Notes under the pieces: generated by a model
The model's database searches: none
What the model saw: the letters and a program-made list of their open reading frames with translations, nothing else
Told to the model about the DNA's origin: nothing
Translations under genes and position numbers: made by a program
In this document: positions 36,855-62,934 of the stretch, piece by piece
How positions within the stretch are numbered: position 1 is the first letter of the stretch
How the letters are laid out: every line of letters begins with the position of its first letter
Source: Escherichia coli
GTDB taxonomy: Bacteria > Pseudomonadota > Gammaproteobacteria > Enterobacterales > Enterobacteriaceae
Length of the DNA: 64,000 nt
Assembly: GCF_051903065.1 (NCBI RefSeq)
Contig: NZ_CP178438.1
Direction: 5' to 3' (one strand)

Positions 36855-36895
36855 TAAATAACGCTACCGCCCCTGGCTTTACAGCTACCAGAGCA
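36855..36895 (-). promoter_or_regulatory. JUMPstart element with ops (RfaH-dependent antitermination) upstream of the O-antigen operon
   Basis: Plus-strand AACGCTACCGCC is the reverse complement of GGCGGTAGCGTT (ops core GGCGGTAG); surrounding CCCCTGGCTTTACAGCTACCA also occurs upstream of wza. Confidence 0.7.
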
Positions 36896-40840: not shown

Positions 40841-40850
40841 GCGTTCTCCT

Positions 40851-42071: not shown

Positions 42072-43348
42072 TTCACCTCCCCGATGCGTTCAAGCACAGA
42101 TTGCACCATCTGCATTCCTGTATAACGCTCACGACTGACAGCTTCATTAAGTCGTGCGTTCAGCGCCGGAAGTTGACCTAAGGTATCCGCAACCATCGCT
42201 TGCAGGCTACCGTCCAGTAAATGACGGATATCAATTGCCATCTCTGGCAGCCCCAGCTGCTGCATGATCCCGGCGGATTTATGTTCATAGTTGATGGCAA
42301 TCGCCGGAGTAGCAAAGTTCATTGAGATAATGGCTGAGTGCAGGCGCGTACCGACGGTGAGTTCACAGGCACCGAGAATTTTGCCCATTTCCAGATCGTT
42401 GAGTTCATCCATCACTACGTGGTAACGGGCAGGATCGCTGATGTGCTGGCGAAGATTGAGCGCCACCATGCGGTCGTCTTTGTTATAGCTGTCGATGCCC
42501 GTACAGGTGGAGAGCGCAATCACCTGATAGCCTTCGTCGAGAATGCGATTGACCACCCCGGCAAAGGCTTTTTCATACGCTTGTTGAGTGGTGCCGAGAC
42601 GTTTGTCGAACGGTGCCAGTTCGCGCAGGGTAATGGCCACCGTTTTCTGTTGTGCGGCAACGTCCAGCCAGTGTTGAACGGCATAGCTGGCAGTGAAGTC
42701 TTCGGTGTGGTGATCGACCAGCCACGCGGTATCGACGCCATGTTCCACTTTTGCGGTAGTGATATTGCTGCGTTTCATCAGATCAAGACTGACCGATTCG
42801 CGCAGGATCAGCGCGTCACAGTGACCAAAAACGTAGTTCGCCAGTTGGTTAAATTGCTCATCCTGGAAGGGACCGACGCTGTGACCAATCATAAACAGCG
42901 GCTTTTTCGCCATAAACGTGCAAAGCGCATGTTCAAACTGCGGCACGCCGTAGAGATCGACAAAAAACGATCCGCCGACCTGAATAATGGCGTCGTAACC
43001 TGACAGCAGGCGCACGAAGTCGGTGAATCCCTGGGCGATGGCGATATTACGCAGCTTGCCAGTGTCGGTGACGCGTGAGAGCAGTACCTGATGCTGGTAG
43101 CGGCGACGGAGGACTTTTTTAACGCGCCCGACAACGCCCGCCGCGCTGTTGTGTTGTTTCATTTGCAGGAACAGCGGATCGCCCATTACCGGGCGGTTGA
43201 GCAGCCAGGAAGAACTGACCGGATAGCGGCTCATCACGTCCACTTCGGCATGTGGATTGAGGATGTTGATGGCATCAAGTAAGCCGCGCAAGATGGCGCT
43301 GTCGCCACGATTGCCGCAAGTGTGGTTGCCCAGAATAAGTAATTTCAT
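42068..43348 (-). CDS. wcaK: Colanic acid pyruvyl transferase
   Basis: 426 aa, MKLLILGNHTCGNRGDSAIL... Confidence 0.9.
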   Translation of the reverse strand: MKLLILGNHTCGNRGDSAILRGLLDAINILNPHAEVDVMSRYPVSSSWLLNRPVMGDPLFLQMKQHNSAAGVVGRVKKVLRRRYQHQVLLSRVTDTGKLRNIAIAQGFTDFVRLLSGYDAIIQVGGSFFVDLYGVPQFEHALCTFMAKKPLFMIGHSVGPFQDEQFNQLANYVFGHCDALILRESVSLDLMKRSNITTAKVEHGVDTAWLVDHHTEDFTASYAVQHWLDVAAQQKTVAITLRELAPFDKRLGTTQQAYEKAFAGVVNRILDEGYQVIALSTCTGIDSYNKDDRMVALNLRQHISDPARYHVVMDELNDLEMGKILGACELTVGTRLHSAIISMNFATPAIAINYEHKSAGIMQQLGLPEMAIDIRHLLDGSLQAMVADTLGQLPALNARLNEAVSRERYTGMQMVQSVLERIGEVK

Positions 43349-43409
43349 TTTTTCCTCATAAATTTGATGCCAGGTGAGGCTGTGTTTGTTGTGTTCGTTG
43401 CCGTTTTTT

Positions 43410-43597
43410 GCCTGATGCGACGCTGGCGCGTCTTATCAGGCCTACAAGACCCGAGCACAGAACCGTAGGCCGGATAAGGCGTTCACGCCGCATCCGGCAT
43501 TCAGTGCCTGATGCGACGCTGACGCGTCTTATCAGGCCTACAGGTCCCGAGCACAGAACCGTAGGATGGATAAGGCGTTTTACGCTGCACCCGGCAA
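43410..43597. repeat. REP/BIME cluster (about 4 units) between wcaK and wzxC
   Basis: Repeated GCCTGATGCGACGCTGGCGCGTCTTATCAGGCCTACA... / ...GGATAAGGCGTTCACGCCGCATCCGGCA units. Confidence 0.8.
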
Positions 43598-43623
43598 CCG
43601 TTGTCGGAGCCTAAAACAACCAT

Positions 43624-45102
43624 TCACCCCGCCCGTAAAAGCATTTTCATTTTTTCGCTGCGACAAAACTGACGCTTCACTTCCACCACCAGCGGATGGC
43701 GCGACAGCACAATCATCACCACAAACGCCAGCACGCCCGCGGCTATTTGCACCGCCAGCAGCATCCCCAGCGCCAGTTGCCCTTTCAGCACAATGCCCAG
43801 CACATAACTGACCACCAGCGTCGGCAGCGAGAGATAAAACGGCAGCCACAAACTCAGGATGTACTGGCGATAACTGGAACCGAGCACCGGTTTAATCATC
43901 ACGAAATAGCTCAGAATGGTGTTGATAATCTGCACCAGCAGGAAGCCAAGCGTGACGCCGATTGCGCCAGCCATCTGCCCACCAATAACAATCGCCGGAA
44001 TAAACAGAAATGTTTTGAATACGTTGAATTTAAAGCTGATATCGACCCGCGCTTTCGCCATCAGCAGCGAACCAATCGGGTTACCCACTGAGCGCAGTAG
44101 CCCCACCACACACAGCAATTGCAGCACCGGAATAATGCTGTTCCACTTTTCGCCAAATACCAGCGGTACAAAGTTATTCGACACCACCATTAGCCCCAGC
44201 AGCGCCGGAAAGTTAATAATCCCCACCACCGAAAGCAGCTTGTAGAAGTTAATGCGCAGCTTTTCGGTATCGTCCTGAATTTTGGCAAACGCCGGAAACA
44301 ACACCCGGGTGATGATCGGGTTCAGCTTCATCGGCGGTACAACGGCCACGTTGTACGCCAGGTTGTATCCCCCTGCCACGCCCGCGCCGAGAATACGCGC
44401 CAGCACCAGCGTTGAAAGGTTGGTGTTGAGATAGTTGATGATGCTGTCCGCCGTCAGCCAGGCACCAAAGCGTAAGTTCGGTGCCACCGACGCCAGCGAG
44501 AAATGCAGACCGGGGCGATAAATTTTGCGGCCAAAGTAGCCAAACAGCAGCGTTCTCACCGCACTATTGACCAGATAACCGAGGATCGCGGTCATCGCCA
44601 GCGGCCAGAAATGGGCGCTAACCACCGTAAAAGTGAAGCCCGCCAGTACCGCGCTGGTTTCGATCATGCCGATTTTGTTGAACTCCAGCTCCTTTTGCAT
44701 CAACGCGCGGAACTGCTGCCCGTGGGGGATCACCACAAACGCCAGCGACAATGTTTTAATCAACGGTGCCAGGTCCGGGTTGTTCAGCACGTCACCAATG
44801 AGATCACTCAACAAAAACACCGCCACGCACACCACAAGCCCCAGCCCAACGTTCAGCCAGTACAGCGTGGTGAGTTCAAGGTGGCTGATTTCTTTTCGCT
44901 GAATAATCGAGTTAGCAATACCGAAGTCAGAAAGCGTATCTGCCAGCGCGATGATCACCAGCGACACGGTAAGCAAACCGAACTGGTGGTTGTCGATGAT
45001 CCGCGCCAGCACGGTCATCTGCACCAGCCCGAGACCGATGATGATCACCGTGGCAATCGCCGACCACTTCGCGCCGCTGATGGTTTTTTCACGTAAGCTC
45101 AT
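43624..45102 (-). CDS. wzxC: Colanic acid repeat-unit flippase
   Basis: 492-aa polytopic MOP-family protein. Confidence 0.9.
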   Translation of the reverse strand: MSLREKTISGAKWSAIATVIIIGLGLVQMTVLARIIDNHQFGLLTVSLVIIALADTLSDFGIANSIIQRKEISHLELTTLYWLNVGLGLVVCVAVFLLSDLIGDVLNNPDLAPLIKTLSLAFVVIPHGQQFRALMQKELEFNKIGMIETSAVLAGFTFTVVSAHFWPLAMTAILGYLVNSAVRTLLFGYFGRKIYRPGLHFSLASVAPNLRFGAWLTADSIINYLNTNLSTLVLARILGAGVAGGYNLAYNVAVVPPMKLNPIITRVLFPAFAKIQDDTEKLRINFYKLLSVVGIINFPALLGLMVVSNNFVPLVFGEKWNSIIPVLQLLCVVGLLRSVGNPIGSLLMAKARVDISFKFNVFKTFLFIPAIVIGGQMAGAIGVTLGFLLVQIINTILSYFVMIKPVLGSSYRQYILSLWLPFYLSLPTLVVSYVLGIVLKGQLALGMLLAVQIAAGVLAFVVMIVLSRHPLVVEVKRQFCRSEKMKMLLRAG

Positions 45103-45103
45103 A

Positions 45104-46498
45104 TCAATATGCCGCTTTGTTAACGAAACCTTTGAACACCGTCAGGAAAACGATTTTGATATCGAACCAGACGCTCCATTCGCGGATGTACTCAAGGTCG
45201 AACTCGACGCGTTTTTCCATTTTCTCCAGCGTGTCGGTTTCGCCACGCCAGCCGTTAATCTGCGCCCAGCCGGTAATGCCCGGTTTCACTTTATGGCGCA
45301 GCATGTAGCCTTCAATGAGCTGGCGATACTGTTCGTTATGCGCCACCGCGTGCGGACGCGGGCCAACAATCGACATCCCCCCGGTCAGCACATTGATAAA
45401 CTGCGGCAATTCATCCAGCGAGGTGCGGCGCAGAAAGTTCCCCACTTTGGTGACGCGCGGATCGTTCTGCGTCGCCTGAGTCACCACTTTGTCGTTCTCC
45501 ATCACTTTCATGGAACGGAACTTCCACACTTTGATCGGCTTGCCATCCATGCCGTAGCGAGTCTGGCGGAAAATAACCGGCCCAGGTGAACTGAGTTTCA
45601 CCGCCAGCGCAATGCAGCACAGCACCGGGGAGATCAGCAGCAGGATAAGCGTCGCCAGCACAATGTCTTCCGCACGTTTTAGCAAGCGGTTAACCCCGGA
45701 AAGTGGCGTGTCATACAGCGGCACCACCGGAACGCCGTTCATCTCTTCGAGACGTGAATGGAGAATGTTGAAGGTAAAGACGTCGGGGATCAGCAGCACC
45801 GAACAGGTAGTGTCCGCCAATTGATGGACCAGTTTTTTCACTCGCGCGCCGTCGCACATTTGCATCGCGATATAGACGTTATGAATCTTGCCTGCTTTAG
45901 CATCCTCGACCAGCTGTTGCAGGTTACCCGCCCAGTCGTTAGAAACGCCGCCCGGTTTCGGGTCGTGGTAAACGCCCACCACTTCAAACCCTAACCACGG
46001 CTGGTTACGGAAGCTCTCCATCAGCATTTGCCCGGCGGCTAAATCCCCCGCCACCGCGACCATGCGCTTGTTATAGCCATGATTACGCAGCCAGCCCGCC
46101 CCAATGCGAATACACGAACGGCAAACCACCAGTCCGATGCTGGTCAGCCCATACCACGCCAGCCAGATTTTCAGTTGCGTGTCGAAATCATTGTTGAACG
46201 CCACCAGTCCGGCGCTGAAAATCACGCTTAAGGTCCAGTTTTGTAGCAGCAGGGCAAATTCTGTCGCTGCCCGAACACCGCGCCATGAGCGATAAAAATC
46301 GGTGATGCCGCCCAGCATCTGGAACACCACCAGCGTAATCAGCGCCACCAACAGGTGCATGTAGAGGAATGACAGTCCGCTCACTTCGCAAACCAGCCAT
46401 AGTCCGGCAAACATGATGGTGATATCTGAAAAGCGTTGCACCATAGAGATTAACGATGCATTGGTTTTCGCTCGCTCGCGCTTTTTTAGATTTGTCAT
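45104..46498 (-). CDS. wcaJ: UDP-glucose:undecaprenyl-phosphate glucose-1-phosphate transferase
   Basis: 464 aa, N-terminal TM region plus C-terminal sugar-transferase domain. Confidence 0.9.
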   Translation of the reverse strand: MTNLKKRERAKTNASLISMVQRFSDITIMFAGLWLVCEVSGLSFLYMHLLVALITLVVFQMLGGITDFYRSWRGVRAATEFALLLQNWTLSVIFSAGLVAFNNDFDTQLKIWLAWYGLTSIGLVVCRSCIRIGAGWLRNHGYNKRMVAVAGDLAAGQMLMESFRNQPWLGFEVVGVYHDPKPGGVSNDWAGNLQQLVEDAKAGKIHNVYIAMQMCDGARVKKLVHQLADTTCSVLLIPDVFTFNILHSRLEEMNGVPVVPLYDTPLSGVNRLLKRAEDIVLATLILLLISPVLCCIALAVKLSSPGPVIFRQTRYGMDGKPIKVWKFRSMKVMENDKVVTQATQNDPRVTKVGNFLRRTSLDELPQFINVLTGGMSIVGPRPHAVAHNEQYRQLIEGYMLRHKVKPGITGWAQINGWRGETDTLEKMEKRVEFDLEYIREWSVWFDIKIVFLTVFKGFVNKAAY

Positions 46499-46552
46499 CG
46501 TTGTTCCTGTTATTAGCCCCTTACCCGCAATGGGGTAAGGGAAGATCCGACA

Positions 46553-47923
46553 TTACTCGTTCAGCAACGCCAGCAGAGTTCGCGTTCGCGCTTCCATCAG
46601 CGGCACATCACCGCGTGATTCCACATTCAACCGCACCACCGGTTCGGTGTTGGAGGAGCGCAGGTTAAAGCGCCAGTCGGCAAAGGTCATGCTGATGCCA
46701 TCGGTGCGATCCACCGCCAGCGCCTCACGGCTAAAATGCTGTTCCACGCGGTTAATCGCCTCAACGGGTTGCGCCAGTTTGCTGTTGATCTCACCGCTTG
46801 CCGGAAACGCAGCCATCCGGTCGCGTACCAGTTCGCCCAGCGTTTTCTCTTTCAGGCATACCAGTTCGGCTACCAGCAACCACGGGATCATGCCGCTGTC
46901 GCAGTAAGCGAAATCACGGAAGTAATGGTGGGCGCTCATTTCGCCACCGTAGATGGCGTCTTCCTTGCGCATCCGTTCTTTAATAAAGGCGTGTCCGGTT
47001 TTCGACATTACCGGGGTGCCACCTGCGGCAGTCACCACATCAACGGTGTTCCAGGAGAGACGTGGATCGTGGATGATCTTCGCGCCGGGATTTTTTTCGA
47101 GGAATGCTTCTGCCAGCAGGCCGACAATGTAATAGCCCTCGATAAACTGCCCTTTTTCGTCAAACAGGAAACAGCGGTCAAAATCGCCATCAAAGGCAAT
47201 GCCCATATCCGCGCCGTGTTTGATGACCGCATTGCGGGTGTCGTCGCGGCATTCCGGCAGTAGCGGGTTAGGAATACCGTTGGGGAAATTGCCGTCCGGC
47301 GTGTTGTGTACTTTGATTAATTCCACCGGTGCGCCGAGGGCTTTAAATCGGGCTTCGATGGCGTCCACCACCGGCCCCGCTGCGCCGTTCCCGGAGTTGA
47401 TCACCAGCTTGAGCGGCGTGAGGTTTTTGACATTGATATAACCGAACAGGTGATCAACGTAAGCGTCACGCAGGTTGATTTGCTGATAGCGACCGCGTTT
47501 GGTTTCATCGACGGGAGGAAAGTCGTTGGCTTCAGCCAGGCGCTGGACATCGCGCAGTCCGGTATCACCGCTGATCGGGCGAGCCCCTTCGCGCACCAGT
47601 TTCATGCCGTTATAATCCATCGGGTTATGGCTGGCGGTAACTTCGATGCCGCCATCCACGCCGAGATGGAACGTGGCGAAATAAATCTCTTCGGTGCCGG
47701 ACATGCCAATATCCAGCACATCGACGCCCGCATCCTGTAAACCTTTCGCCAGCGCCAGTTTTAAGGTTTCGCTGGTGAGGCGGACATCGCCGCCTAAAAC
47801 AATGGTTTTCGGTTTAAGAAATTCGCCATAGGCGCGACCAATACGCCAGGCAATATCTTCATTCAGTTCTTCGCCTAATTTCCCGCGAATATCATAGGCT
47901 TTAAAGCAAGTTAATTTTTTCAT
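46553..47923 (-). CDS. cpsG: Phosphomannomutase
   Basis: Internal ATG gives [29 protein letters not shown]...; phosphohexomutase motifs. Confidence 0.9.
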
Positions 47924-48012
47924 GTCGTTACCCTTTTTCAGGCAATAGTTGGCCCTGACCGAAGCGGCCAATTTTGTTTTTGTCGTTATTTACACCGCGG
48001 TTTCGCATTCAT

Positions 48013-48115
<103 letters not shown>

Positions 48116-49552
48116 TTACACCCGTCCGTAGCGATCCGCGAAGCGCACCACATCATCCTCTTCGAGATAAGAGCCGGAGCGCACTTCAATTAAATCGAGC
48201 GGAATTTTCCCCGGGTTTTCCAGGCAGTGCGTCGCCCCCAGCGGTATATAAATGGACTCGTTTTCACCAAGCAGTTTGATATCACCGTCAATGGTGACTT
48301 TTGCCGTTCCCGCGACAACCACCCAGTGTTCCGCGCGGTGATGGTGCATCTGTACCGACAAGCCTTCGCCCGGTTTCACGGTGATGCGTTTCACCTGGTA
48401 GCGGTCGCCCGCGTCGATAGAGTCATATTTGCCCCACGGGCGATAGACTTCGCGATGTACCCGATGCTCATGGCGACCATCGGCTTTGATCTGCTCGACC
48501 ACTTTTTTCACATCCTGCACCGCGTTACGGTCGGCAATCAGCACCGCATCTTTGGTCTGCACCACTACCAGATCTTTCACCCCGACGGTGGTTACGAGGC
48601 CAGATTCGGCATACACATAGCTGTTTTCAGTTTTGTGATTAATCACATCGCCATGGCAAACGTTGCCCTCGGCGGTGTGGGCACTGATCTCCCATAAAGA
48701 GGACCAGGAACCGACATCGCTCCAGCCCGCATCCATCGGCACCACAACGGCATCTGCCGTACGTTCCATGACCGCGTAATCCACCGACTCTTCCGGGCAG
48801 GCCAGAAACGCTTCTTCATCCACGCGAATAAAATCGAGATCCGGATCGACGGCGCTCATCGCTTTTTCACAGGCATCGAGAATATCCGGGCGATATTTTT
48901 TCAGTTCTTCGAGATAGCGTCCGGCGCGGAACAGGAACATACCGCTGTTCCAGTAATATTCGCCGCTTGCCACATAGGCCTGAGCGGTTTCCAGATTCGG
49001 TTTTTCGACAAACTGCGCCACTTCAAAGGCCACCGTATCCTGCTCACCCGCCGACACTTCACCGCGACGAATATAGCCATAACCGGTTTCTGGTAGATCC
49101 GGCACGATGCCAAAGGTCACCAGCTTGCCCGCTTCGGCATACGGCATGGCATTACGCACGGCGGCACGGAACGCGTCTTCATCGGCAATCACATGATCCG
49201 CCGCCAATACCAGCATTAACGGGTCGCTCTCCGGGCTATGACGTTTTGCCGCCAGCGCCGCCAACGCAATGGCAGGTGCTGTGTTACGCCCTGCAGGTTC
49301 GAGAATAATGTTCTCGGTGAGTTTGTTCAGTTGACGCAGCTGTTCCGCGACAATAAAGCGGTGCTGCTCATTGCAAATCACCACAGGGCTTTCGCACTCC
49401 ACGCCGTTCAGGCGGCAGATGGTGGTTTGCAGCATGGTGAGATCGCCTTTCAGGCATAAAAACTGCTTGGGATAAAGTACGCGGGAAAGCGGCCATAAGC
49501 GGCTACCGGAGCCACCTGCCATCACAACTGGATAGAGTTTCGACTGCGCCAT
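48116..49552 (-). CDS. cpsB: Mannose-1-phosphate guanylyltransferase
   Basis: 478 aa, [24 protein letters not shown]... Confidence 0.92.
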
Positions 49553-49554
49553 AA

Positions 49555-50778
49555 TTATCCCCGAATATCATTTATAAATTGACGTAACACGTTCTCTTTA
49601 TCGAGCGTGCGTTCGGCATATTCACGTGCCACCGTGTTGTGTTTGGGCAGCAGGAGCGCCTGACGAATCCCCGCCACCAGCGCCTCAACCGATTCCGGTT
49701 CTACGCAAACCGCAATGCCCGGAAAGGTTTCGCAAAGCTGCCCCAGTTCTGTGTGGGCTTCTGCGGTAATCACCGCGTTACCGCCTACTGCCAGAATATT
49801 GGTCAGTTTCGACGGCAATACGGCATCTGCCGCGCCGCGTTTTTGCACCACCAGATGGCAATCGCCCATCTTCAGCAGTGCGGGTAAAGCGTCATACGAT
49901 TGCAGCGGGAAAAATTGCATGTTGTGCAGTCCACGCTGCTGCGCCATTTTTTCCAGCCGCGCTTTGCCGCCGCCCTGCCCGACAATGGCAAAAATCAGCG
50001 GTTCATCACGCAGGCGTTCGGCAGCTTCAATAACGTTTTCCAGCCCCTGCTTTTCACCAATATTGCCGGAGTAAAGAATGATTTTTTTGTTATCCGGCAG
50101 GCCAAGCTGGTTACGAAGAGCATCAACATCGGCGTCTGCAACATGCTGAAAACGGGCGATTTCCGACCAGTTGGGGAAGAAGATGACGTTTTCCGCCGCC
50201 ACGCCTTTTTCGATGGCTTTATTCATCATCGAACGCGAAATCGTGGAGACGTTATCGACGTTATGCAATCCGCTACGCTCAAACGCTGTTGCCAGCTGTG
50301 CCACTTTGCCGCCTTTGCCTTTTCCGGCAAGGCCCAGCCCCAGCATGGCGTCCACTTCGTAATCCTGAATATGCAGCACGGTACGCGCACCAGAGAGTTT
50401 CGCCAGCAGGCGCATTCCCGGCGTGCAAAACAGCGTTGGCACCACGCCGATAATACGATCCGGCTTCCAGCGACGTTGCGCCATCAACGGGAAAAAACTG
50501 CTGACGGCAAAACTGCCGAGATGCAACAGGCGTTTCAGGGTGCTCGGCTGTTTTGGCACATACAGCGGGCAGCGCCACACCGTGGCGGCCCCCTCTTCTC
50601 GTTTGTAGCGCCAGGCGGAATAGTTCTCGCCCACCTGCCACTGCGGGTAGTAAGGCGGTGCGGTAATGACCCGCACCTCATGACCTTGTGCCGCCAGCCA
50701 TTCCACCATCTCGCCGGTGTACTTGCCGATGCCGGTTAACTCCGGCGAGTAGTTAATGCCGTAGACCAGTATTTTCAT
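49555..50778 (-). CDS. wcaI: Colanic acid glycosyltransferase (GT4)
   Basis: 407 aa, [20 protein letters not shown]... Confidence 0.9.
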
Positions 50779-51257
50779 AATCCGGGTACTCCGGCACGCT
50801 TCTCAGCGAGAAAATAGGCGCGGCTGTTAGCGTGAACATTGTCACTGGCGAGCAGTGCGTCCGGCGTCAGCCAGCGGTAATCGTCATGCTGTTCATCCGG
50901 CAGTAACAGCTCTTCTTCAGCGACTCTGAAGCAAAAACCGAGCACCACATAGTGAGTGGTGAAATCCGTGCCAGAGAAGTTATCGTCATAAAAGTGCTGC
51001 CAGACACCGTAAAACTGGCCTGCTGTTATCGGCAGACGCAGCCCCAGTTCCGCCATCGTCAGCCGCTCAAATGCGGCCTCCAGCGTTTCGTCTTTCTGCA
51101 CGCGCCCTCCCGGCACAAACCAGTAACCCTGCGCCGGGCGGTTGGTTCTTTTGCCAAGCAGAAACTCGCCGCGACTGTTCTCAACAATAAAGTCGAGAGA
51201 GACAAGCGGGGTGGAGCGCACTACCGTGGCAAAGTCTTCCTGACGTAAAAACATCAT
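50775..51257 (-). CDS. gmm: GDP-mannose mannosyl hydrolase (Nudix)
   Basis: 160 aa; ATGA overlap with wcaI. Confidence 0.9.
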
Positions 51258-52222
51258 TACCCCCGAAAGCGGTCTTGATTCTCAAGGAACCACTGGTAAG
51301 TGCTGGCAAGCCCCGCTTCCAGTGAGATTTCGTGATACCAGCCAAGCTGATGCAGGCGCGTCACATCCAGCAGTTTGCGCGGCGTACCATCCGGTTTACT
51401 GGCATCAAAAACCACCCGACCTTTGTAACCCACCACTTTGGCGATGGTTTGCGCCAGCTCGCGGATAGTGCAGTCAATGCCCGTACCGACGTTAATGTGC
51501 GACAGCATCGGCTGGGTGTTCTCCAGCCAGACTTCGTGCGCCAGCTCCATCACGTGAATGCTTGCCGCCGCCATATCATCGACATGCAGAAATTCGCGCA
51601 TCGGTGTACCGCTGCCCCACACCACCACGTCCGGTGCATTCTGTGCCGTCGCCTCGTGGAAGCGACGCAGCAATGCAGGGATCACATGCGAATTACTCGG
51701 GTGGAAGTTGTCATGCGGGCCATACAGGTTGGTCGGCATGACTGAGCGGTAATCGCGTCCATACTGGCGGTTGTAAGATTCGCACAGTTTGATCCCGGCG
51801 ATTTTGGCAATGGCGTAAGGCTCGTTGGTCGGCTCCAGCGTGCCCTGCAATAATTCGCTTTCTGCCATCGGCTGTTTTGCCAGTTTCGGGTAGATGCAGG
51901 ACGATCCAAGAAACAGCAGTTTGTTCACGTCGTTCTGATGCGCGGCGTGAATGATGTTGCTCTCAATCATCATGTTCTGGTAGATGAAATCCGCCGGGTA
52001 GGTGTTGTTGGCAACAATGCCGCCCACTTTCGCCGCCGCCAGATAGACCTGGTCAATGCTTTCGCTGGCAAAGAAATCATGCACGGCGCGGCTGTCCAGC
52101 AGGTTAAGCTCGTCGCGGGTGCGTAATACCAGTTCCACATCACCGCGCTGTTCGAGCTGCCGCCTGATGGCGGAACCGACCATCCCGCGATGGCCAGCAA
52201 TAAAAATGCGTTGTCTACTCAT
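51257..52222 (-). CDS. fcl: GDP-L-fucose synthase
   Basis: 321 aa, [21 protein letters not shown]... Confidence 0.92.
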
Positions 52223-52224
52223 GC

Positions 52225-53346
52225 TTATGACTCCAGCGCGATCGCCACGTCGTAGCCGTGAGATTTCAGCAGAGAGTGTTTTTTCGCCGCTTCGAGGTCA
52301 TTAGCCACCATTTCAGACACCATCTCTCTGAGGGTGATTTCCGGTTTCCAGCCCAGTTTTTCGTGCGCTTTGGTCGGGTCGCCGAGCAGCGTTTCAACTT
52401 CTGCCGGACGGAAGTAACGCGGGTCAACGGCGATAATCACATCACCCGGTTTAACGCCCGGCGCGTCATGTCCGGTGACGGAAACCACAATGCCCTTCTC
52501 TTCAACACCCGTGCCTTCAAAGCGCAGTTTGATGCCCAGCTGTGCTGCCGCCATTTCTACGAACTGACGTACGGAGTACTGAACGCCGGTCGCGATAACG
52601 AAATCTTCTGGCTGTTCCTGTTGCAGCATCATCCACTGCATTTTTACGTAGTCTTTGGCATGGCCCCAGTCACGCAGGGAATCCATATTGCCGAGGTACA
52701 GGCACGACTCCAGCCCCTGGGCGATGTTGGCGATTGCGCGGGTGATTTTGCGGGTAACGAAGGTTTCGCCGCGGCGCGGGGATTCATGGTTGAAGAGAAT
52801 ACCGTTACAGGCATACATGCCGTAGGATTCACGGTAGTTGACGGTGATCCAGTAGGCATACAGTTTGGCGACCGCATACGGAGAGCGCGGATAGAACGGC
52901 GTGGTCTCTTTCTGCGGAATTTCCTGCACCAGACCATACAGTTCAGAGGTGGAAGCCTGATAGAAACGGGTTTTCTTTTCCAGACCGAGGAAGCGGATCG
53001 CCTCCAGCAGGCGCAGCGTACCCATCGCGTCGACGTCAGCGGTATATTCCGGTGACTCAAAAGAAACCGCAACGTGGCTCATTGCGCCCAGGTTGTACAC
53101 TTCATCCGGCTGTACTTCACGCAAAATGCGCGTCAGGTTGGAGGTATCACTCAGGTCGCCATAATGCAGATGGAATTTCGGGTTGCAGGTGTGCGGATCC
53201 TGATAAATGTGATCCACGCGCTCGGTGTTGAATGACGATGCGCGACGCTTAATACCATGCACCTCGTAACCTTTTTCCAGCAGAAACTCTGCCAGGTAAG
53301 AACCGTCTTGTCCGGTTACACCGGTGATGAGAGCGACTTTTGACAT
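52225..53346 (-). CDS. gmd: GDP-mannose 4,6-dehydratase
   Basis: 373 aa, [35 protein letters not shown]... Confidence 0.95.
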
Positions 53347-53373
53347 GTCTTATTCCTCTGTATTTTTTTGAAT

Positions 53374-53922
53374 TTATTCAGTTTCAACGCGTTTGCGTAT
53401 CACCACTGCGGGATTCCCCCGGCAAACCACATTTGCCGGAAGCGATTTAAAAACACTGCTTCGTGCACCCACGACGGTGCCGTCGCCAATCGTGACGCCT
53501 GGGGCAACAAAAACATCGGTTGCCAGCCAGCATTTCTCGCCAATCACAATAGGCGTGGCGTTAATGGTGAAATGTTGACTTGCATGGTCGTGGCTCCCGG
53601 TGCATAAATAACTTTTTTGCGATATCACCGAATGTGCGCCAATGGTTATTTCACCGAGGGTATATAAATTGACGTCATCGCCGACCCACGCGTAATCACC
53701 TAAGGTTAATTTCCACGGATAGGTAATTTTTACTGACGGACGAATAACTACGTTTTTTCCTATTTTTGCGCCGAATAAACGTAATAAAAATGTCCGCCAG
53801 CGATACAATACTTGTGGCGACCAGGCAAATAATGTTGCCTGTACTGCCCACCACAATTGCACTTTAATAGCGTTGCCGCCCCGGAACCCTTTCGGCACCG
53901 AGAACCCACTTAAATCCTGCAT
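53374..53922 (-). CDS. wcaF: Colanic acid acetyltransferase (hexapeptide repeat)
   Basis: 182 aa. Confidence 0.9.
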   Translation of the reverse strand: MQDLSGFSVPKGFRGGNAIKVQLWWAVQATLFAWSPQVLYRWRTFLLRLFGAKIGKNVVIRPSVKITYPWKLTLGDYAWVGDDVNLYTLGEITIGAHSVISQKSYLCTGSHDHASQHFTINATPIVIGEKCWLATDVFVAPGVTIGDGTVVGARSSVFKSLPANVVCRGNPAVVIRKRVETE

Positions 53923-53937
53923 CGTTTTTCCTTATAT

Positions 53938-54684
53938 TTAGCTTTTGTTATATAAGGCTTTCGTCTTTGAGGTAGTACGCTGGCGTAAATGCCAGGATAG
54001 TTCTGCCCAGAAGCCAGGCACATGTAATATTTGCCGTTGGACTTTTTTGGCGTCAGCACACAATTCCATATTATTGGTGGTTGATACCCCACCCATAGAA
54101 AATTCAGACACCAGACCATTGAGTTTTTTAAATGCATAACCGGCTTTATACATTTTGGCTGCCAGCGCGTAATCAGAAGAAACTTTATATTCCAGGTCAT
54201 AACGCCATTTTTTCAAACCGGATACCGGGAAAAATATCGCCTGATGACTGGCGGGCAGGCTGTGATAAATATACCAACCCGGTTTGGCGCTACGTTTAAT
54301 TTTATGCCCGTCGCCAAAATCCAGCAGCGCATCGCCGGTGATCATCATGTTATCTTTTTGCATTTTTAACTTACGGACAAAATTTGCGGCATCCTGATGA
54401 AAAATATCGCCCGAGTTGAGAAACAACGCGAACTTGCCTTGTGCCATCGCAATGCCCTTGTTCATGGCGTCGTAGATACCGTTATCTGGCTCGCTGACAA
54501 AGCGTAGGTTATAGATACCATTGAGATTTTCCAGGTACTCACGGGTGCCGTCATTGGAACCGCCATCGACAACAATCCATTCGAAGCTGATATCGTCCGC
54601 CTGCGCCAGATGCGCCAGCGAGGCGTGTGTTTTGACTATCCCTTCGAGGTTACGAAACGCGACAGTGATTATGCTAAGCAACAT
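53938..54684 (-). CDS. wcaE: Colanic acid glycosyltransferase (GT2)
   Basis: 248 aa, [23 protein letters not shown]... Confidence 0.9.
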
Positions 54685-54694
54685 GTTCTTATTC

Positions 54695-55912
54695 TTACCT
54701 CGTAATATTTAACGCTTTTCGCAAAATAAACGGACAGACGATTAAAAATGCATATTCCGGGCTAAATATCGAACCGGTAAAAAACAGCGATACCGGAGTA
54801 AAAAGATATAATTGCACGCGAAAATTGCGGTTATCACCAAAAGCGTTGATCATCATTTTTATCACTTTCCCCATGTACCACAGCGATAAAAACACCGCGA
54901 ACCAGGAAAAATAAATAATCAGCAGATACAAACCATTGTCTATGGTTTTTCCGATATCCGCACCGTTAAATATTCCGAATGATGCGACATATTCATAAAG
55001 TGAGCCAAATCTGACTACACCGTCAATATGGGTCAAAGAATAACCGACCATCACCAGCGGACCGACAATACGATAATACGATGACGATCCTTCCGTACCT
55101 AAATCGCCCAGACGGGTGGAAATATAAGGAAACGCGATTACCACACCAACCAGGAATACAGCCAGAGAAATCAATGCTAACGGTAACTTTTTCTTAATCG
55201 CCTCTTTATTCAGATATTGAAATGCCCACTCCAGCAAATAAAACAGGATAAAGGTCATAACCCCTGAAAACGATCCGGATAATATTATCCCTGCGAGAAT
55301 CATAGCATCTGTTTTAGGCGTTTTGATACCAAACTGTTTGATGCTGAGCCAAATTGAGATTAATGCCAGAGCGAAAAATGCCGGTTCGAAATAAAGTGCT
55401 GTCGTGCGCTTGCCGCCGAATTTAATGAAATTCAGCACATAGCTGTTGCTGTAAATCAGATATTTCGAAATCGACTCCATAATACTGCTGCCACCGGTGA
55501 GGATAATTTGCGCCATCTCCACCGCCGCCAGCGCCACCACCAGCCCGACCACCAGATAAAAGAAACGTAATATCTTGCGATGGTTGTGTGGCGAAATTGT
55601 TTTAAAACGAATACTCCACACCATGCCAATAATGATCACAATATAGACAAACAGCATGGTTGAAGTGACGTATTTACTGGCATCCAGCGACTGACCAAAC
55701 AGATAGTTAAACGCCGTGAGTCCCGCACCAATCCCTAAGGCAATCATCAATTTTTTAACGCTGATGCGTTCTAAAAACAGCAGTAACAAGACAGGTAAAA
55801 AAGTGACGATAGTGATGGGGAAACTTTCACCAAGCTGGGCGATTTTGACGTTAACCAGCAGGTAGATCAGCGGCAGCAGCAGGTAGCTACAGATTCTGAT
55901 AGAAGTTGACAT
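54695..55912 (-). CDS. wcaD: Colanic acid polymerase
   Basis: Internal ATG gives [22 protein letters not shown]...; the track ORF extends 24 codons further into wcaC. Confidence 0.85.
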
Positions 55913-57104
55913 ACTCCTCCAGCATCTGTTGTCCACTGTAGGCGGCGCGGCTGCGCTGGCTGAACTCAGCCAGCGTGGTACCAAATATCGCCTGCGCGAT
56001 TTCCGGTTTGCTTAACTGGACCAGTTGCAGCACGTCTTCTTCGCTGACGGTTTTACCGCCGGATTTTTGCAACACTTCACGCGCCGCGTCGCTATGGGTG
56101 GCAATCACCGGCACGCCAATTGATAACGCCTCACACAAAATCAGCGGGTAGTTATCGACACGAGAACTGAACACCAGCGCATCCATCTGATTGAGCGCGC
56201 TCATCAGCTTACGTTTGTCGGTTTCAAAGCCGTGATTGACCACGTTGCCAGCGGTGAACGGCGAGAACTTACCGAAGGTATGCAGTTCGATTTTGTCGTC
56301 CAGCGCCATCATCTCGCGCACCAGTTGCTGGTTAGTTTTGCCGTCGTAACGCAGGTCATGCGCTACCACCGCGATTTTCGGCTTGCCCTGAGTTTCGCGC
56401 ACCGGAGGCAGATCCGCCAGAATCGCTTCGGTTGCCATATCAATACCGTTATTGATAATCCGGCAACGCCCTGGACCGTACAGGCTATTGAAAGCGTCAG
56501 CCACATGCTGGCTGGGGGAAATAAACTGACAGCCCAGCGCCAGCATCTCAAGGAATAACTGGCGTTTGCCCGCCACCAGTTGGTGTGCGCGATCAATCTT
56601 CACCGGCGGATAATTATTTAAGGTCGGGCATTTCTGGCAGCCCGTTTTCCAGCCTTCACAACCGTCAGTAAAGGCGCAGCGCCCGGTAACGCTCCAGTGG
56701 TCGTGCAGCGTCCAGACCAGAGTGACATCCGGTTTGTGGTTTTTCACCTTTTCGCAAAAGCGCACCACGCTCTTAAGATTCAACCAGTAGCTGTGCAGCA
56801 CATGAAAATGCAGGACCACCGGACCCGGTGTGCGAGTAATGGTGCGATATAACTCATTGAAATTGCCGAACAGATCGCGATTAAACAGACGAAACAGGGC
56901 AATGTTCGCCATCGCAGTCATCCGCGGCGTATGTTTGATGACCTGCGGATAGTTTTGATGGCTGACGCTCTCTTTGCCGCCTTTGCCGTAGCCGTAGACA
57001 AAATGTGACGCCAGCCCCTGTTGCAGCGCACGCTGGTGGAGATCTAACGCCACACCTGCTGCCCCGCCTTCCGCCAGTCGCACATTAAATTGCAAAATAT
57101 TCAT
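55887..57104 (-). CDS. wcaC: Colanic acid glycosyltransferase (GT4)
   Basis: 405 aa, MNILQFNVRLAEGGAAGVALDLHQRAL... Confidence 0.9.
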   Translation of the reverse strand: MNILQFNVRLAEGGAAGVALDLHQRALQQGLASHFVYGYGKGGKESVSHQNYPQVIKHTPRMTAMANIALFRLFNRDLFGNFNELYRTITRTPGPVVLHFHVLHSYWLNLKSVVRFCEKVKNHKPDVTLVWTLHDHWSVTGRCAFTDGCEGWKTGCQKCPTLNNYPPVKIDRAHQLVAGKRQLFLEMLALGCQFISPSQHVADAFNSLYGPGRCRIINNGIDMATEAILADLPPVRETQGKPKIAVVAHDLRYDGKTNQQLVREMMALDDKIELHTFGKFSPFTAGNVVNHGFETDKRKLMSALNQMDALVFSSRVDNYPLILCEALSIGVPVIATHSDAAREVLQKSGGKTVSEEDVLQLVQLSKPEIAQAIFGTTLAEFSQRSRAAYSGQQMLEEYVNFYQNL

Positions 57105-57589
57105 TTGATTACCTTCACTCGCGCTTTTTCTCCCACCACCAGCGCGTTGTCCGGGACAGAATCGAGCACCACGCTGCCCGCGCCCACGGTGACGTTGTTA
57201 CCAAGCGTGATATCACCAAGAATAATGACGTTGGCACCGAGTTCGACGCCGTTGCCAATGTGTGGACATGCCATGTTATCGGCACCACGATTGCCGATAG
57301 TGACGCCGTGGCGAATGGTAAAATCATCCCCCGCTACCACGTTTTTATTGATCACTACGGCGTAACCGTGATGGATAGTAAAGCGGCGGCCAATGGTCGC
57401 GGCAGCCTGGATTTCATAACCGAAAAAGCATTCGGTGATAATGCGATACAGCACCAGCAGCGGGGCCGCCCACAGATTGTTGAGAACGTTCTTTTTGCGC
57501 CACACCGAACAAAAATGAGCGACGCGATAGGCAAGAACCATGCAGCACGGGCGTAAACTCCAGCTGTTGGCGCGTAGATCTTCCAGCAT
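57101..57589 (-). CDS. wcaB: Colanic acid acetyltransferase (hexapeptide repeat)
   Basis: 162 aa; ATGA overlap with wcaC. Confidence 0.9.
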   Translation of the reverse strand: MLEDLRANSWSLRPCCMVLAYRVAHFCSVWRKKNVLNNLWAAPLLVLYRIITECFFGYEIQAAATIGRRFTIHHGYAVVINKNVVAGDDFTIRHGVTIGNRGADNMACPHIGNGVELGANVIILGDITLGNNVTVGAGSVVLDSVPDNALVVGEKARVKVIK

Positions 57590-57591
57590 AT

Positions 57592-58431
57592 TTAGCGCCC
57601 CCGAATACCATCAGCCAGACGTTTGCCGTTACGCACCGACAGCAGCGTCAGCAAAGTGCGCCAGGTCATGCGTTTATTGCGGATCTGGTAGAGGGTAAAC
57701 AGCTGATATTTTTTGCTGGCGCGGTCAAATTTGTCTTTGTGCTTGCGGTAAAAGTGGAAGTATCCGGAGAATTTTTTCGGTGACGAGGTGATCTGCATTT
57801 CACCGTGATTGATATGCAGGATCTGCGTCGCCTCTTCCACTTTCCACGGTTCGCCATACTCCACCACCATCCGCAGGAAGATGTCGTAATCCTGTGCCGC
57901 TTTCAGTTCGGTATCGAACAAACACTCTTTGAAACGCCATGCCCAGGTAAAGACCTGATTGCCAATGATATTGCGTTTATAGAACAGGCGGCGTGAGTAC
58001 GGCGATTTGGGATACAGTGGTAAGCTTGCCGGTTGGGAATAAACTTCTCCCTGGCATACGTAGTCGTTAGCGTACAAAAAGGCGTGAGTGACCAGTTGCT
58101 GTTTATGGGCGAGGAAGACGCTCAGACGGTTGGGTGTCCATTCATCATCATCATCGATCCCGGTGATGTATTCCCCTTGCGCCAGCATAATCGCCTGGTT
58201 ACGTACCGCGCAAGCCCCGCTGTTAATGTCGTTGTGAATGTAGGTAATACGCGGATCGTTGAGGGCGGTGACGTACTGTTGCAGTTGTTCCCAGGAGGTG
58301 GAGCAATCATCCACGATGATCATCTCCCAGTTGCTGTAGTCCTGGCGCATGACCGATTTTATCGCCCGAATCGCCAGTTGTTGGCGGTTCCAGGTCGGCA
58401 TATAGATTGAGATCAGCGGATTGTCTTTCAT
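57592..58431 (-). CDS. wcaA: Colanic acid glycosyltransferase (GT2)
   Basis: 279 aa, ...ISIYMPTWNRQQLAIRAIKSVMRQDYSNWEMIIVDDCST... Confidence 0.9.
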   Translation of the reverse strand: MKDNPLISIYMPTWNRQQLAIRAIKSVMRQDYSNWEMIIVDDCSTSWEQLQQYVTALNDPRITYIHNDINSGACAVRNQAIMLAQGEYITGIDDDDEWTPNRLSVFLAHKQQLVTHAFLYANDYVCQGEVYSQPASLPLYPKSPYSRRLFYKRNIIGNQVFTWAWRFKECLFDTELKAAQDYDIFLRMVVEYGEPWKVEEATQILHINHGEMQITSSPKKFSGYFHFYRKHKDKFDRASKKYQLFTLYQIRNKRMTWRTLLTLLSVRNGKRLADGIRGR

Positions 58432-58465
58432 AGGTTGTTCTCCCGGCTTATGAGCTGGTTTGCTT

Positions 58466-58520
58466 GCCGGATGCGGCGTGAACGCCTTATCCGGCCTACG
58501 GGGCGGTGCGAATGCAGGCG
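58466..58520. repeat. REP element between wzc and wcaA
   Basis: GCCGGATGCGGCGTGAACGCCTTATCCGGCCTACG. Confidence 0.7.
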
Positions 58521-58523
58521 TCG

Positions 58524-60686
58524 TTATTTCGCATCCGACTTATATTCGTATTCGTAATAGCCATAATCCTGATACGCGCTGGCGCGGCGGATGATGGAGT
58601 TCAGAATCACCCCTTTCACCGGAATACCGTTTTGCTCAAAGCGGCTCAGACTGGTTTCCACTTCTTTCAATGTGTTGACCGCATAACGCGCCACCATTAA
58701 CGTGGTTCCGACATGACGACCAACAATTGCGGCATCGGTCACTGCCAGAATCGGCGGCGTATCAATCAACACCAGGTCGTAGTTTTTACTCGCCCAGTTC
58801 ACCAGTTCGGCAAAGCGTTCGCTCATCAACAATTCAGAAGGATTTGGCGGTACCTGACCGCGCGGGATCAGGTCAAATTTGGCAATCGAAGTGGGTTTAG
58901 CAGCGGTAGTAATATCGCCCTGACCAATCAGAATTTCCGACAGGCCATTGACGTTATTGGTGCCCAACAGCTCGTGGGTGTAGCCTTTGCGCATATCGCA
59001 GTCGATCAACAACACGCGTTTATTGGTCTGGCTGATCACCGCCGCCAGGTTGGCGCAGACAAAGGTTTTACCGATTGACGGGCTAACCCCGGTCATCATC
59101 AACACATTGTTCTGCGCCTGCATCATCGCGAAGTGCAAACTGGTACGAAGACTGCGGATGGCTTCAATCGCCAGATCGGTTGGATTCCCCACCGCCAGTA
59201 GCTGGCTCTGTTTATAGCGTTTAACTCCTTTGATGGTTTTGACGCTATCGCGCGCTTTTTGCCACTCCGACAGAGGAATACTGGCATAGACGCTGATGCC
59301 ATGTTCTTCCAGCACCTGTGGGCTTTCGATGCCGCGATTAAACAACGAGCGCAGCAGTACACCCACGATAGAAAGCATCAGGCCGAGGATAATCGCCCCA
59401 AGGATAATCAGCCCTTTCTTCGGTTTCAGTACACCTGGCTGGGTGATTGCCGGGTCAACAATGCGCACATCGCCGACGGTGCTGGCTTCGGTGATTTTCA
59501 GCTCCTGCTCTTTATTCAGCAGTTGCATATAGACCTGCTGACCAGACTCGACATCGCGGGTCAGACGGACAATCTCCTGCTGGGTTTTCGGCATCGCCGT
59601 TACGCGACCGTTAAGTTTGGCTTTTTCGTCTTCCAGCGCCTGACGTTTCTCCAGCAGCGTGCGGTACGCCGGGTGAACTTTGGTGTAAAGTTTGGAGATT
59701 TCCGCCTCTTTAAAGGTTAGTTCGTTCAACTGCGCGTCGATGTTCACCATCGAATCGAGCACCGCTTTCGCTTCCAGCGGCAGATCAACGGAATCTTTAT
59801 CCTGACGGAAGGTATTCAGTTTGTTTTCGGCAACATCGAGGCGGCTACGTACTTCCGGTAACTGTTGCGCGAGGAAAGCGAGGCTTTTCGACGCTTCCGC
59901 CGATTTGCGCTCAATATTTTGTTCCTGATAGTTACGGGCGATGCTGTTAAGAATGTCGCGGATCTGTTCGCGATCTTCACCGGTATAAGTCAGGCTCAGT
60001 ACGCCTGCGTCTTTGCCGTTCTCCGTTACCGTCAGGCTGTTTTGCAGTTGGTTGATCATCCCCAGCGTGGAGTATTTGGTGATGGTAAACTCACTGCCCG
60101 GGCTGGCGTGAATAGCTTCAACCATCAGCGTGACGCCTTCTTTTGTCAGCATCTGGCCCGCTTGCCCACGGGCGCTAAAGCTGCCATCGCTGCTCAGAGT
60201 GTAGTTTTTATCGTCCAGCACATTAAGCGTAAACACCTGGTCCGCCATCTCTTTCGGGCGGTTAAAGGTAGTCACTTTCACCGTCTCGTTCTGCCGTCCC
60301 ATCAGGCGATCCCAGCCCGCACCGAAAATCGGGAACGTGTTTTTGCTCACCGCAATATCGAGGTCGAGATCGTCCACCGTTTTACCAAGCACCAGACGCG
60401 AACGAATCAACTGGATCTCGGCGTCCGATGCAGGCGGTTTGTTGGCTAATGCCGAGCCGATATCCTGTACTAACGAATTGCCGCTGTTTTGCTCGATTTG
60501 TACCAGTGCGTCGGCACTATAAATCGGCGTGGCGAAGAAGGTGTAAACCACGGCACAGACGGCAAATACAGCGGTGATGCCAATCACCCACCAGCGCGCT
60601 TCAATGACGGTGCCGACCAGGCGACCAATATCGATTTCATCACTGCCCGTTACCGGAGCGGCATGTTGTTTTACTTTTTCTGTCAT
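58524..60686 (-). CDS. wzc: Tyrosine autokinase / polysaccharide co-polymerase
   Basis: Internal ATG gives MTEKVKQHAAPVTGSDEIDIGRLV...; Walker A GVSPSIGKT and a Tyr-rich C-terminus YGYYEYEYKSD. Confidence 0.92.
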   Translation of the reverse strand: MTEKVKQHAAPVTGSDEIDIGRLVGTVIEARWWVIGITAVFAVCAVVYTFFATPIYSADALVQIEQNSGNSLVQDIGSALANKPPASDAEIQLIRSRLVLGKTVDDLDLDIAVSKNTFPIFGAGWDRLMGRQNETVKVTTFNRPKEMADQVFTLNVLDDKNYTLSSDGSFSARGQAGQMLTKEGVTLMVEAIHASPGSEFTITKYSTLGMINQLQNSLTVTENGKDAGVLSLTYTGEDREQIRDILNSIARNYQEQNIERKSAEASKSLAFLAQQLPEVRSRLDVAENKLNTFRQDKDSVDLPLEAKAVLDSMVNIDAQLNELTFKEAEISKLYTKVHPAYRTLLEKRQALEDEKAKLNGRVTAMPKTQQEIVRLTRDVESGQQVYMQLLNKEQELKITEASTVGDVRIVDPAITQPGVLKPKKGLIILGAIILGLMLSIVGVLLRSLFNRGIESPQVLEEHGISVYASIPLSEWQKARDSVKTIKGVKRYKQSQLLAVGNPTDLAIEAIRSLRTSLHFAMMQAQNNVLMMTGVSPSIGKTFVCANLAAVISQTNKRVLLIDCDMRKGYTHELLGTNNVNGLSEILIGQGDITTAAKPTSIAKFDLIPRGQVPPNPSELLMSERFAELVNWASKNYDLVLIDTPPILAVTDAAIVGRHVGTTLMVARYAVNTLKEVETSLSRFEQNGIPVKGVILNSIIRRASAYQDYGYYEYEYKSDAK

Positions 60687-60688
60687 TC

Positions 60689-61132
60689 TTATACCTGCTC
60701 TGCGTTCAATGCCTGCGCCCACTGGCGGGCAGACCGTTCAAGTAATGTGTACACCGCTGCAAACGTTTCCCGGCTTTTGCGATACGGATCGGGGATTTCA
60801 CATTCGTTATCCCAGTGACCAAACAGCATCACTTTGCCGCGCATCTCAGGTGCCATCTCGCATAAGCGTTCGATATGGCGCTTTTCCATGGTCAAAATCA
60901 GGTCATAGTTGCGACACAGGCGGCGGCTGATTTGCCGTGCACAGTGACCTTCCAGAGACAGTTGATGCTCTGCGGCAACGCTGATGGCGGTAGGATCAGC
61001 GCCCTTACCGACCAGCGCGCCGAGTCCAGCGGACTCCACTTTCAGCTCCGGGTGATAACGTTGCAGTAAGCGTTCCGCCGTCGGGGAACGGCAAATATTG
61101 CCGACACAGACAACTAAGATGTTGTTAAACAT
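60689..61132 (-). CDS. wzb: Low-molecular-weight protein-tyrosine phosphatase
   Basis: 147 aa, MFNNILVVCVGNICRSPTAERLL (CX5R motif). Confidence 0.93.
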   Translation of the reverse strand: MFNNILVVCVGNICRSPTAERLLQRYHPELKVESAGLGALVGKGADPTAISVAAEHQLSLEGHCARQISRRLCRNYDLILTMEKRHIERLCEMAPEMRGKVMLFGHWDNECEIPDPYRKSRETFAAVYTLLERSARQWAQALNAEQV

Positions 61133-61137
61133 GACGA

Positions 61138-62277
61138 TTACCAGTTATGAATGTCGCTGGCTGTATCCGTCATGTAACGGACACCGCTAATAGTTGGCAG
61201 CAACTGATTGATCAGACGGTTCCAGCGGGAAACCGGGGCGGTGGTGACATACACCACGTCATAAGGTTGCAGGCGGAATTCTGTCGCCATCACCAGCGAC
61301 GTGGCATCGGACATATCCAGCTGGTAGATATTGGCAATCTTGCCGTTACGCCCGCCCTCGCCTTTCAGCGGACGAATGACAAAGATGCCGCTGGCGTTGG
61401 AGGTGGTCATGTCGATGCCTTCAGCATTGCCCAGGGCTTCAGTCAGGGTCATGCCGCTAAAGTCCATTTTCAGGGTGCTCTGTTTCTTCACTTCACCCAT
61501 CACAAATACTTTCAGATCATCATTACGTGGCACGTAGAGAATATCGCCGGGGTAAAGCAGGCGATTCTGGTTGAGGTCGCCGTTTTGCATCAGCGCCTGC
61601 AAAGAAATGCGCTCTTCACGACCATTGTGTGTTAGCACCACGTTGCGCCAGTCAGCGGTGTCGGTCAGGCCACCTGCGGCGTTGATGGCATCGAGAATGG
61701 TCAGTGGTACGTTGGTAATCGCCTGTTGACCGGATTTATTCACCTGGCCGGAGATATAGGCTTTTTGCGAGCGGAAGGCGGCGATATTAACGTCCACCTG
61801 CGGGTCAGCGATGTACGTCGCTAAGCGCCCGGTAATATCACTGCGGATTTCAGCGAGCGTTTTCCCCACGACGTGAACCTTGCCGATATACGGGTAGAAC
61901 ATGGTGCCGTCAGGCTGTACCCAGTTGCCGGTGTCGCTGGAACTGCGGTACTGACCAGCTGGCGTGGTGAGTTCCGGGTGATCCCAGACGGTGACATTAA
62001 GAACGTCCCCCGGCCCGACGCGATACTGGTAATTCGCGATCTCGCTTTCCAGCGTCATATTGGGGCGCGCTACATTCGGGCGTGGGCGTAATTGGTCAAT
62101 CAGGCGCGGGGTCAGCGGATACACATTCACCATTTTGTCGAGATCGAAATCAGCGTCCTGCTGTTTGATGACGTCTTTGCCCATCGTCGACATATTGCTG
62201 CCCGGAAGTACTGTGCAACCGCTTATCAAGGTTACTGACACCAATAATGGCATCAATTTCATTTTGGATTTCATCAT
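61138..62277 (-). CDS. wza: Outer-membrane polysaccharide export lipoprotein
   Basis: 379 aa, lipoprotein signal ...[11 protein letters not shown]... Confidence 0.93.
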
Positions 62278-62439
62278 TGTTTATTTATCACTTTGGCAGA
62301 GTAATTATCCTGTGCACTATTAATAGCAATGTCGCAATGCACATTTACCTTGCAGTTAATTGAATAAAAATTTAACTGGCATCAGTCCTAAAAAAATTGA
62401 TTTCATCCGCAGGCTATTGACAGAATAATTCAGACTGGC

Positions 62440-62495
62440 TTTCAGGCATCCAGACACGCTACCGCCCCTGGCTTTTTAGCTACCAATACACTGAT
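62440..62495 (-). promoter_or_regulatory. JUMPstart/ops element in the wza 5' leader
   Basis: Plus-strand CACGCTACCGCCCCTGGCTTTTTAGCTACCA; reverse complement contains GGCGGTAGCGTG; about 180 nt upstream of wza. Confidence 0.75.
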
Positions 62496-62934
62496 TTAGC
62501 TTAATTTTTAAAACCCTCTCAACATACAGTCGTTGATGAGAAAGGGTTATTGCGGAAATTAACTTCCGAATATAAGGTGACATTATGGTAATTGAATATT
62601 GGCTCTCCAATAATGCAGGAGGAAGTGTTACAGCTAACGGAATAGCAGGCAAGGTAACAATTCGGCAATTGGCTATTTTTAAGAATTATATTAAGTGTCA
62701 TTCAATATGGTTTTTAGGAGTTTCTTTAGGTTGACAATATTTAATATTGCGTCTCCACATGCGATATTTCTTAAATAATGTTTTATTATTACCACTTTTA
62801 ATTCAGGGATAATGTGAGGTTATTACCCTCAAATAATATGAGATAAATAGTGCTACAACATTGCATTTTTGCCCCGATTTATCCATGATCGAATTGTGAC
62901 ATTTGTCATACAACGAATAGGTTTTGTACTTACT

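Follow-up and report, generated by a model that had tools for sequence, protein, structure and literature searches.

RfaH binds RNA polymerase, replaces NusG, counteracts pausing and Rho-dependent termination and couples transcription to the ribosome, all of which is established. Its recruitment site, the 12-nt ops element, has the same consensus, GGCGGTAGnnTG, in the non-template strand at waaQ (rfaQ), hlyCABD, kps region 3 and F tra, each with a long leader in front of a long envelope or secretion operon. These operons have other promoters and regulators, whereas wza, the first gene of the colanic acid (cps/wca) operon, also requires RcsAB as an activator and stays silent under standard culture conditions. 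Group 1 capsule clusters (E. coli K30 and Klebsiella cps) likewise carry a JUMPstart element before the homologous wza-wzb-wzc module and show RfaH-dependent read-through of a hairpin after wzc, a result reportedly owed to Rahn and Whitfield in 2003. In these clusters, however, the JUMPstart lies after galF and before wzi and expression is largely constitutive, in contrast to the colanic acid element, which lies after an Rcs-dependent promoter by yegH.

The same element as the one analysed here, differing only at strain level, is that of the wza leader of E. coli K-12 and CFT073 (Hobbs & Reeves 1994; Stout 1996; Hustmyer et al. 2022). A 2023 paper ascribes colanic acid transcription to 'a JUMPStart-RfaH antitermination mechanism' and refers for this to Stout 1996 and Hobbs & Reeves 1994. 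One paper says that cps 'presumably' needs RfaH, and according to secondary sources RfaH is needed downstream of wzc. In CFT073 lacking hns and stpA, ChIP-seq placed RfaH along wza-wcaM and a sigma70 peak before wza; in ΔrfaH the RfaH signal was absent (Hustmyer et al. 2022). In their list of sites the ops GGCGGTAGCGTG, placed at -190 from wza, is classed as lying in the non-template strand of a leader and as having RfaH signal; in wild-type CFT073 they found the wza locus bound by H-NS and silent. In K-12 grown in rich medium under standard conditions RfaH is reported on two operons only, which fits a need for Rcs induction at wza. Together, the silence in CFT073 and the two-operon result in K-12 mean that RfaH acts at wza conditionally, upon Rcs activation or loss of H-NS.

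We analysed a 64,000-nt stretch of an E. coli chromosome (the window), in which the colanic acid operon and its leader read on the minus strand:

62455..62466, minus strand: ops element GGCGGTAGCGTG, RfaH recruitment and pause site (exact 12-mer match)
62455..62493, minus strand: JUMPstart element CAGTGTATTGGTAGCTAAAAAGCCAGGGGCGGTAGCGTG, 39 nt, with ops as its 3' end (Rfam RF01707)
61138..62277, minus strand: wza ORF, 379 aa, beginning ATGATGAAATCC (NCBIfam PRK15078, polysaccharide export protein, 729 bits, full length)
39446..40840, minus strand: wcaM (WcaM match, NCBIfam, 1019 bits)
39446..62277, minus strand: colanic acid operon from wza to wcaM, 20 co-oriented ORFs, 22.8 kb (ORF list and annotation of identical E. 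coli records)

The preliminary description, made by eye from the letters alone, had noted a motif on the reverse complement about 180 nt before the wza start. We found there an exact 12-mer, whose 3' base lies 178 nt and whose 5' base lies 189 nt upstream of the wza ATG (A at 62277), and which reads on the wza sense, that is, the non-template strand, where it matches the 12-nt consensus given above. The interval marked at that time, 62440-62495, encloses the complete 39-nt JUMPstart. Against Rfam RF01707 this JUMPstart scores 57.3 bits over model positions 1-38 of 38 (gathering score 35; E = 1.6e-10 for the whole window), and it is placed in the 5' leader, on the sense strand, of a polysaccharide cluster of which wza is the first of the 20 co-oriented ORFs. 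Allowing up to one mismatch, the ops 12-mer has two matches in the window (shuffle mean 0.43), both of which fall within JUMPstart matches above the gathering score (62455..62493 and 36860..36898). The reading of the motif as an RfaH recruitment site was borne out by a canonical ops in a full JUMPstart, by its position on the non-template strand, and by the CFT073 RfaH ChIP-seq data set, whose entry gives the same 12-mer at a matching distance from wza (-190). The ops elements of CFT073 rfaQ and tssH are also identical to it. The wza ops/JUMPstart is already known, and nothing here is new to biology in that respect.

The second JUMPstart of the window belongs to the O-antigen (rfb) cluster, and after wcaM the order is a 331-aa epimerase ORF, galF, this JUMPstart and the O-antigen genes:

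38293..39288, minus strand: 331-aa ORF of the NAD-dependent sugar epimerase/dehydratase family
37157..38050: galF
36860..36898, minus strand: O-antigen JUMPstart (Rfam, 58.8 bits), between galF and the first O-antigen ORF
36010..36825: first O-antigen ORF

This element shares the core GGCGGTAGCGT with that of wza, but its ops variant, GGCGGTAGCGTT, has at position 12, which is +1 of the pause, a T where the wza ops has G. It lies about 35 nt before the first ORF, as against 178 nt at wza, and the promoter context differs; the O-antigen cluster is not known to be Rcs-controlled. The best NCBIfam matches of the 331-aa ORF are all below cut-offs; we take it to resemble gne, and presumably it is not found at the same position in K-12.

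Within E. coli the leader is highly conserved. A comparison with the K-12 wza leader, which the preliminary description had proposed, showed the JUMPstart to be identical: the yegH-wza intergenic region is 98% identical to that of MG1655, differing by 14 substitutions and one deleted nucleotide over 666 nt, all of them outside the JUMPstart. The same region is 100% identical to that of several E. coli chromosomes, and 4818 of 5426 complete E. coli genomes contain it. A 61-nt segment that includes the element occurs in 4817 of the 5426, at an identity of at least 99% in 3934 of these.

Beyond E. coli, we compared 80 loci from one-genome-per-species contigs, picked solely by similarity of the Wza protein (87-100% identity); 79 of them have upstream DNA, and the counts refer to these. 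About 18 named genera were sampled, including Citrobacter, Salmonella, Enterobacter, Kosakonia, Lelliottia, Phytobacter, Franconibacter, Atlantibacter, Trabulsiella, Buttiauxella, Cedecea and Siccibacter. The ops sequence is conserved in 76 of the 79 loci. In 74, GGCGGTAGnnTn is present on the wza strand with its 5' end at -186 to -199. One further locus (L006) carries GACGGTAGCGTG at -189, with a single mismatch and still an Rfam match at 41.8 bits, and in one, Citrobacter amalonaticus (L046), GGCGGTAGnnTn lies at -308. The latter locus has an intact JUMPstart (2139..2177), and about 118 additional nt separate ops from wza, giving 308 nt versus about 190. Among 41 diverse sequences, ops positions G1-G8 and T11 are invariant save for one G2A variant (L006), and only positions 9, 10 and 12 vary (CGTG, CATG, CCTG, CGTA and CATA), the same pattern as in the published consensus. 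When 76 leader sequences were aligned over the 660 nt before wza, conserved and free stretches were seen to alternate, and the JUMPstart including ops was the best-conserved block of an otherwise diverging leader.

The three remaining loci, from Pseudescherichia vulneris, 'Escherichia sp. ESNIH1' and UBA7338 (L036, L037 and L040), have wza still beside yegH and a different leader, without ops or JUMPstart within 2.5 kb. Judged from these sequences, the Pseudescherichia group would represent a lineage-specific loss of the RfaH entry site, in which the whole leader was replaced. The JUMPstart is thus not indispensable, since three related lineages keep wza without any.

Upstream of the JUMPstart, the alignment points to a promoter and to sites for its activator:

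62624..62652, minus strand: candidate sigma-70 promoter, -35 TTGCCT (62652..62647), 17-nt spacer, -10 AACACT (62629..62624), found by conservation
62715..62728, minus strand: RcsAB-box-like site TAAAGAAACTCCTA, 10/14 against the consensus TAAGAATATTCCTA, with its centre about 105 bp before the predicted transcription start
62680..62693, minus strand: second RcsAB-box-like 14-mer TAATATAATTCTTA, 10/14 against the consensus, 35 bp downstream of the first

In the 76-sequence alignment, CTTGCCTG, 17 nt, then TAGCTG(C/T)AACAAT are kept across genera and the flanks diverge; the spacer of the candidate promoter ends in TGT here and in TGC in most other genera. TTGCCT-17-AACACT is, plausibly, a weak, activator-dependent promoter. 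Transcription would then start near 62616, giving a leader of about 340 nt with ops at about +151..+162. This agrees with the wza leader of about 340 nt that we take to have been mapped in K-12. A mapped wza transcription start was not found in the openly readable literature. The block TTGTCAAyA-TAAAGAAAATCCTAAAA, which holds TAAAGAAACTCCTA, is kept in nearly all genera, and CTTAATATTAATCTTAAAA, which holds TAATATAATTCTTA, is conserved across genera as well; from sequence likeness, we infer that both are RcsAB boxes. The literature is said to describe one RcsAB box at wza, and here there are two box-like sites. The consensus string TAAGAATATTCCTA was confirmed in PMC12388358. In a 2008 paper, Stout 1996 is the source given for a single promoter upstream of wza, and Wehland & Bernhard 2000 is that given for the RcsAB box. 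The candidate -35/-10 pair and the RcsAB-like boxes precede ops by 130-270 nt, and this phylogenetically conserved putative promoter region fits the proposal of a long 5' leader in the preliminary description. In CFT073 the sigma70 peak before wza, taken with the RfaH signal, points to transcription through ops.

Three other candidates in this region were set aside. The sole intergenic match of the consensus promoter scan, TGGAGA-16-CATAAT (62609..62582), lies in a poorly conserved stretch, and TTGCCT-17-AACACT was preferred to it. An earlier RcsAB-box candidate, TAAGAAATATCGCA (62773..62760), is only moderately conserved and was replaced by the two strongly conserved boxes. A hairpin upstream of ops at about 62547..62510 (CCCTTTCTCA...TGAGAGGG), which had surfaced via a weak, spurious miRNA match, is not conserved, and its T-run is broken in K-12. 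The poorly conserved stretch between the candidate promoter and the JUMPstart measures 120 nt. On the plus strand, opposite to wza, a 49-aa 'hypothetical protein' (62585..62734), annotated in RefSeq E. coli records, overlaps the conserved promoter/RcsAB region and is probably a spurious gene call.

Conservation resumes between ops and wza:

62368..62430, minus strand: leader blocks GAATTATTCTGTCAATAGCCTGCGG and TTTTTAGGACTGATGCCAGTTAAATTT (62430..62408 and 62393..62368), conserved across genera
62278..62318, minus strand: conserved translation-initiation region GCACAGGATAATTACTCTGCCAAAGTGATAAATAAACA, about 40 nt directly before the ATG

The blocks after ops are as conserved as the JUMPstart and include TTTTTAGGACTGATGCCAGTTA and GCACAGGATAATTACTCTGCC, with two invariant GGA motifs, the second of which sits in the context ACAGGAU, similar to a CsrA site. 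These blocks, like the JUMPstart, are also present in a paralogous Kosakonia locus (L073), whose promoter is unrelated. RfaH recruitment may be only part of the role of the wza leader, the conserved blocks forming an undescribed post-transcriptional control module, a proposal we regard as doubtful. The 20 nt before the wza ATG (CCAAAGTGATAAATAAACA) are conserved and contain no GGAG or AGGA resembling a Shine-Dalgarno sequence, which fits RfaH-assisted initiation of translation. The leader has a G+C content of 34%, versus 49% for the window, in line with the reported binding of H-NS.

On this evidence we are highly confident that the element is the JUMPstart/ops of the colanic acid operon leader, the entry point of RfaH. 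That a 12-mer is short is all that speaks for a chance match without function, the probability of which is negligible given the full 39-nt Rfam match, an element identical in K-12, and a sequence and position kept in 76 of the 79 loci. Indeed, chance is excluded because the two matches in the window both lie in Rfam JUMPstarts, K-12 is identical and the position is conserved across about 18 genera. One might also suppose that ops is not transcribed and is an inert relic, with the active promoter lying between it and wza. The 177 nt in between do hold conserved blocks without an assigned role, and in a K-12 evolution study, which speaks of 'the Pcps JUMPstart element', insertion of IS1 between the JUMPstart and wza enhanced the colanic acid phenotype. 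However, the RfaH ChIP signal at wza needs same-strand transcription through ops, the conserved -35/-10 pair and the RcsAB-like boxes are found before it, and the promoter scan returned no consensus promoter between ops and wza. A position held within 13 nt across genera is, moreover, hard to explain for a relic, so that this explanation appears very improbable.

The remaining alternative is that the JUMPstart works also, or instead, as an RNA element, the upstream half of which forms a stem-loop (UUGGU/GCCAG) acting on RNA stability, processing or translation. Rfam does treat the JUMPstart as RNA, with a stem of 5 bp in its model; 99% of the cells of this stem can pair, the stem is compatible with the data, and conservation in the upstream half (CAGTG...TTGGTAGCT...GCCAG) reaches past the 12 nt known to be required by RfaH. 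However, compensatory changes affecting both sides of a pair are absent, and the observed values are attained in shuffles (127 and 110 of 500). The 340-nt leader folds no better than shuffles either (z = -1.13), and conservation of the upstream half could equally reflect constraints at the DNA level. A role as RNA is unlikely in our view, and we retain the reading of the element as the RfaH entry site.

For an RfaH entry site, the scheme at wza would be as follows. RNA polymerase would start at the promoter activated by Rcs, some 340 nt before wza, as conservation suggests, and about 150 nt into the leader would transcribe GGCGGTAGCGTG and pause. The 12-mer fits the consensus pause, with G2 as the G at -10, T11 as the pyrimidine at -1 and G12 as the G at +1. 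In the paused complex the non-template ops strand would be exposed, and RfaH would bind it, open and clamp onto the polymerase in place of NusG; it would then suppress pausing and Rho-dependent termination, and its refolded C-terminal domain would recruit the ribosome. When the ops 12-mer was folded as single-stranded DNA, the hairpin reached only -0.9 kcal/mol; the hairpin register in crystal structures differs from that of this computed fold. Thus modified, the polymerase would finally pass through the leader, which is AT-rich and bound by H-NS, then the hairpin that follows wzc, and the operon in its full 22.8 kb.

The preliminary description had put the operon at roughly 24 kb, which is slightly high: between the wza ATG and the wcaM stop codon (39446) we measured 22.8 kb, and counted from the predicted transcription start the length is about 23.2 kb. 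Intrinsic-terminator-like sites within the operon are no commoner than in shuffles, which fits a role of RfaH directed mainly against Rho and H-NS. Between the wzc stop and the wcaA start there is a REP-like hairpin, GGCCGGATAAGGCGTTCACGCCGCATCCGGC (about 58466..58496, minus strand), corresponding to the point beyond which RfaH is reportedly required. Rfam further matches a naRNA4/REP in the wzxC-wcaK gap (43468..43538, plus strand) and, inside the operon and directly upstream of the cpsG/manB phosphomannomutase ORF (46553..47971), the 'algC RNA' motif (47928..47977, minus strand; 77.3 bits versus a gathering score of 33.8). Elsewhere in the window it matches the histidine operon leader (18784..18907, plus strand; 131.6 bits), two identical tRNAs (1452..1524 and 3861..3933, plus strand) and the sRNA STnc240 (16412..16486, minus strand), all of which are ordinary for this chromosomal region.

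Descriptions of the element date from the 1990s, and its binding by RfaH was shown in 2022. A 12-mer read by eye rightly flagged where RfaH enters a 23-kb capsule operon, so the logic of this kind of annotation works. The survey has some practical value in that it shows the ops-wza distance to stay at 186-199 nt (74 of 79 loci) and marks the conserved putative promoter/RcsAB region and leader blocks, which should be kept intact when colanic acid overproduction is engineered.
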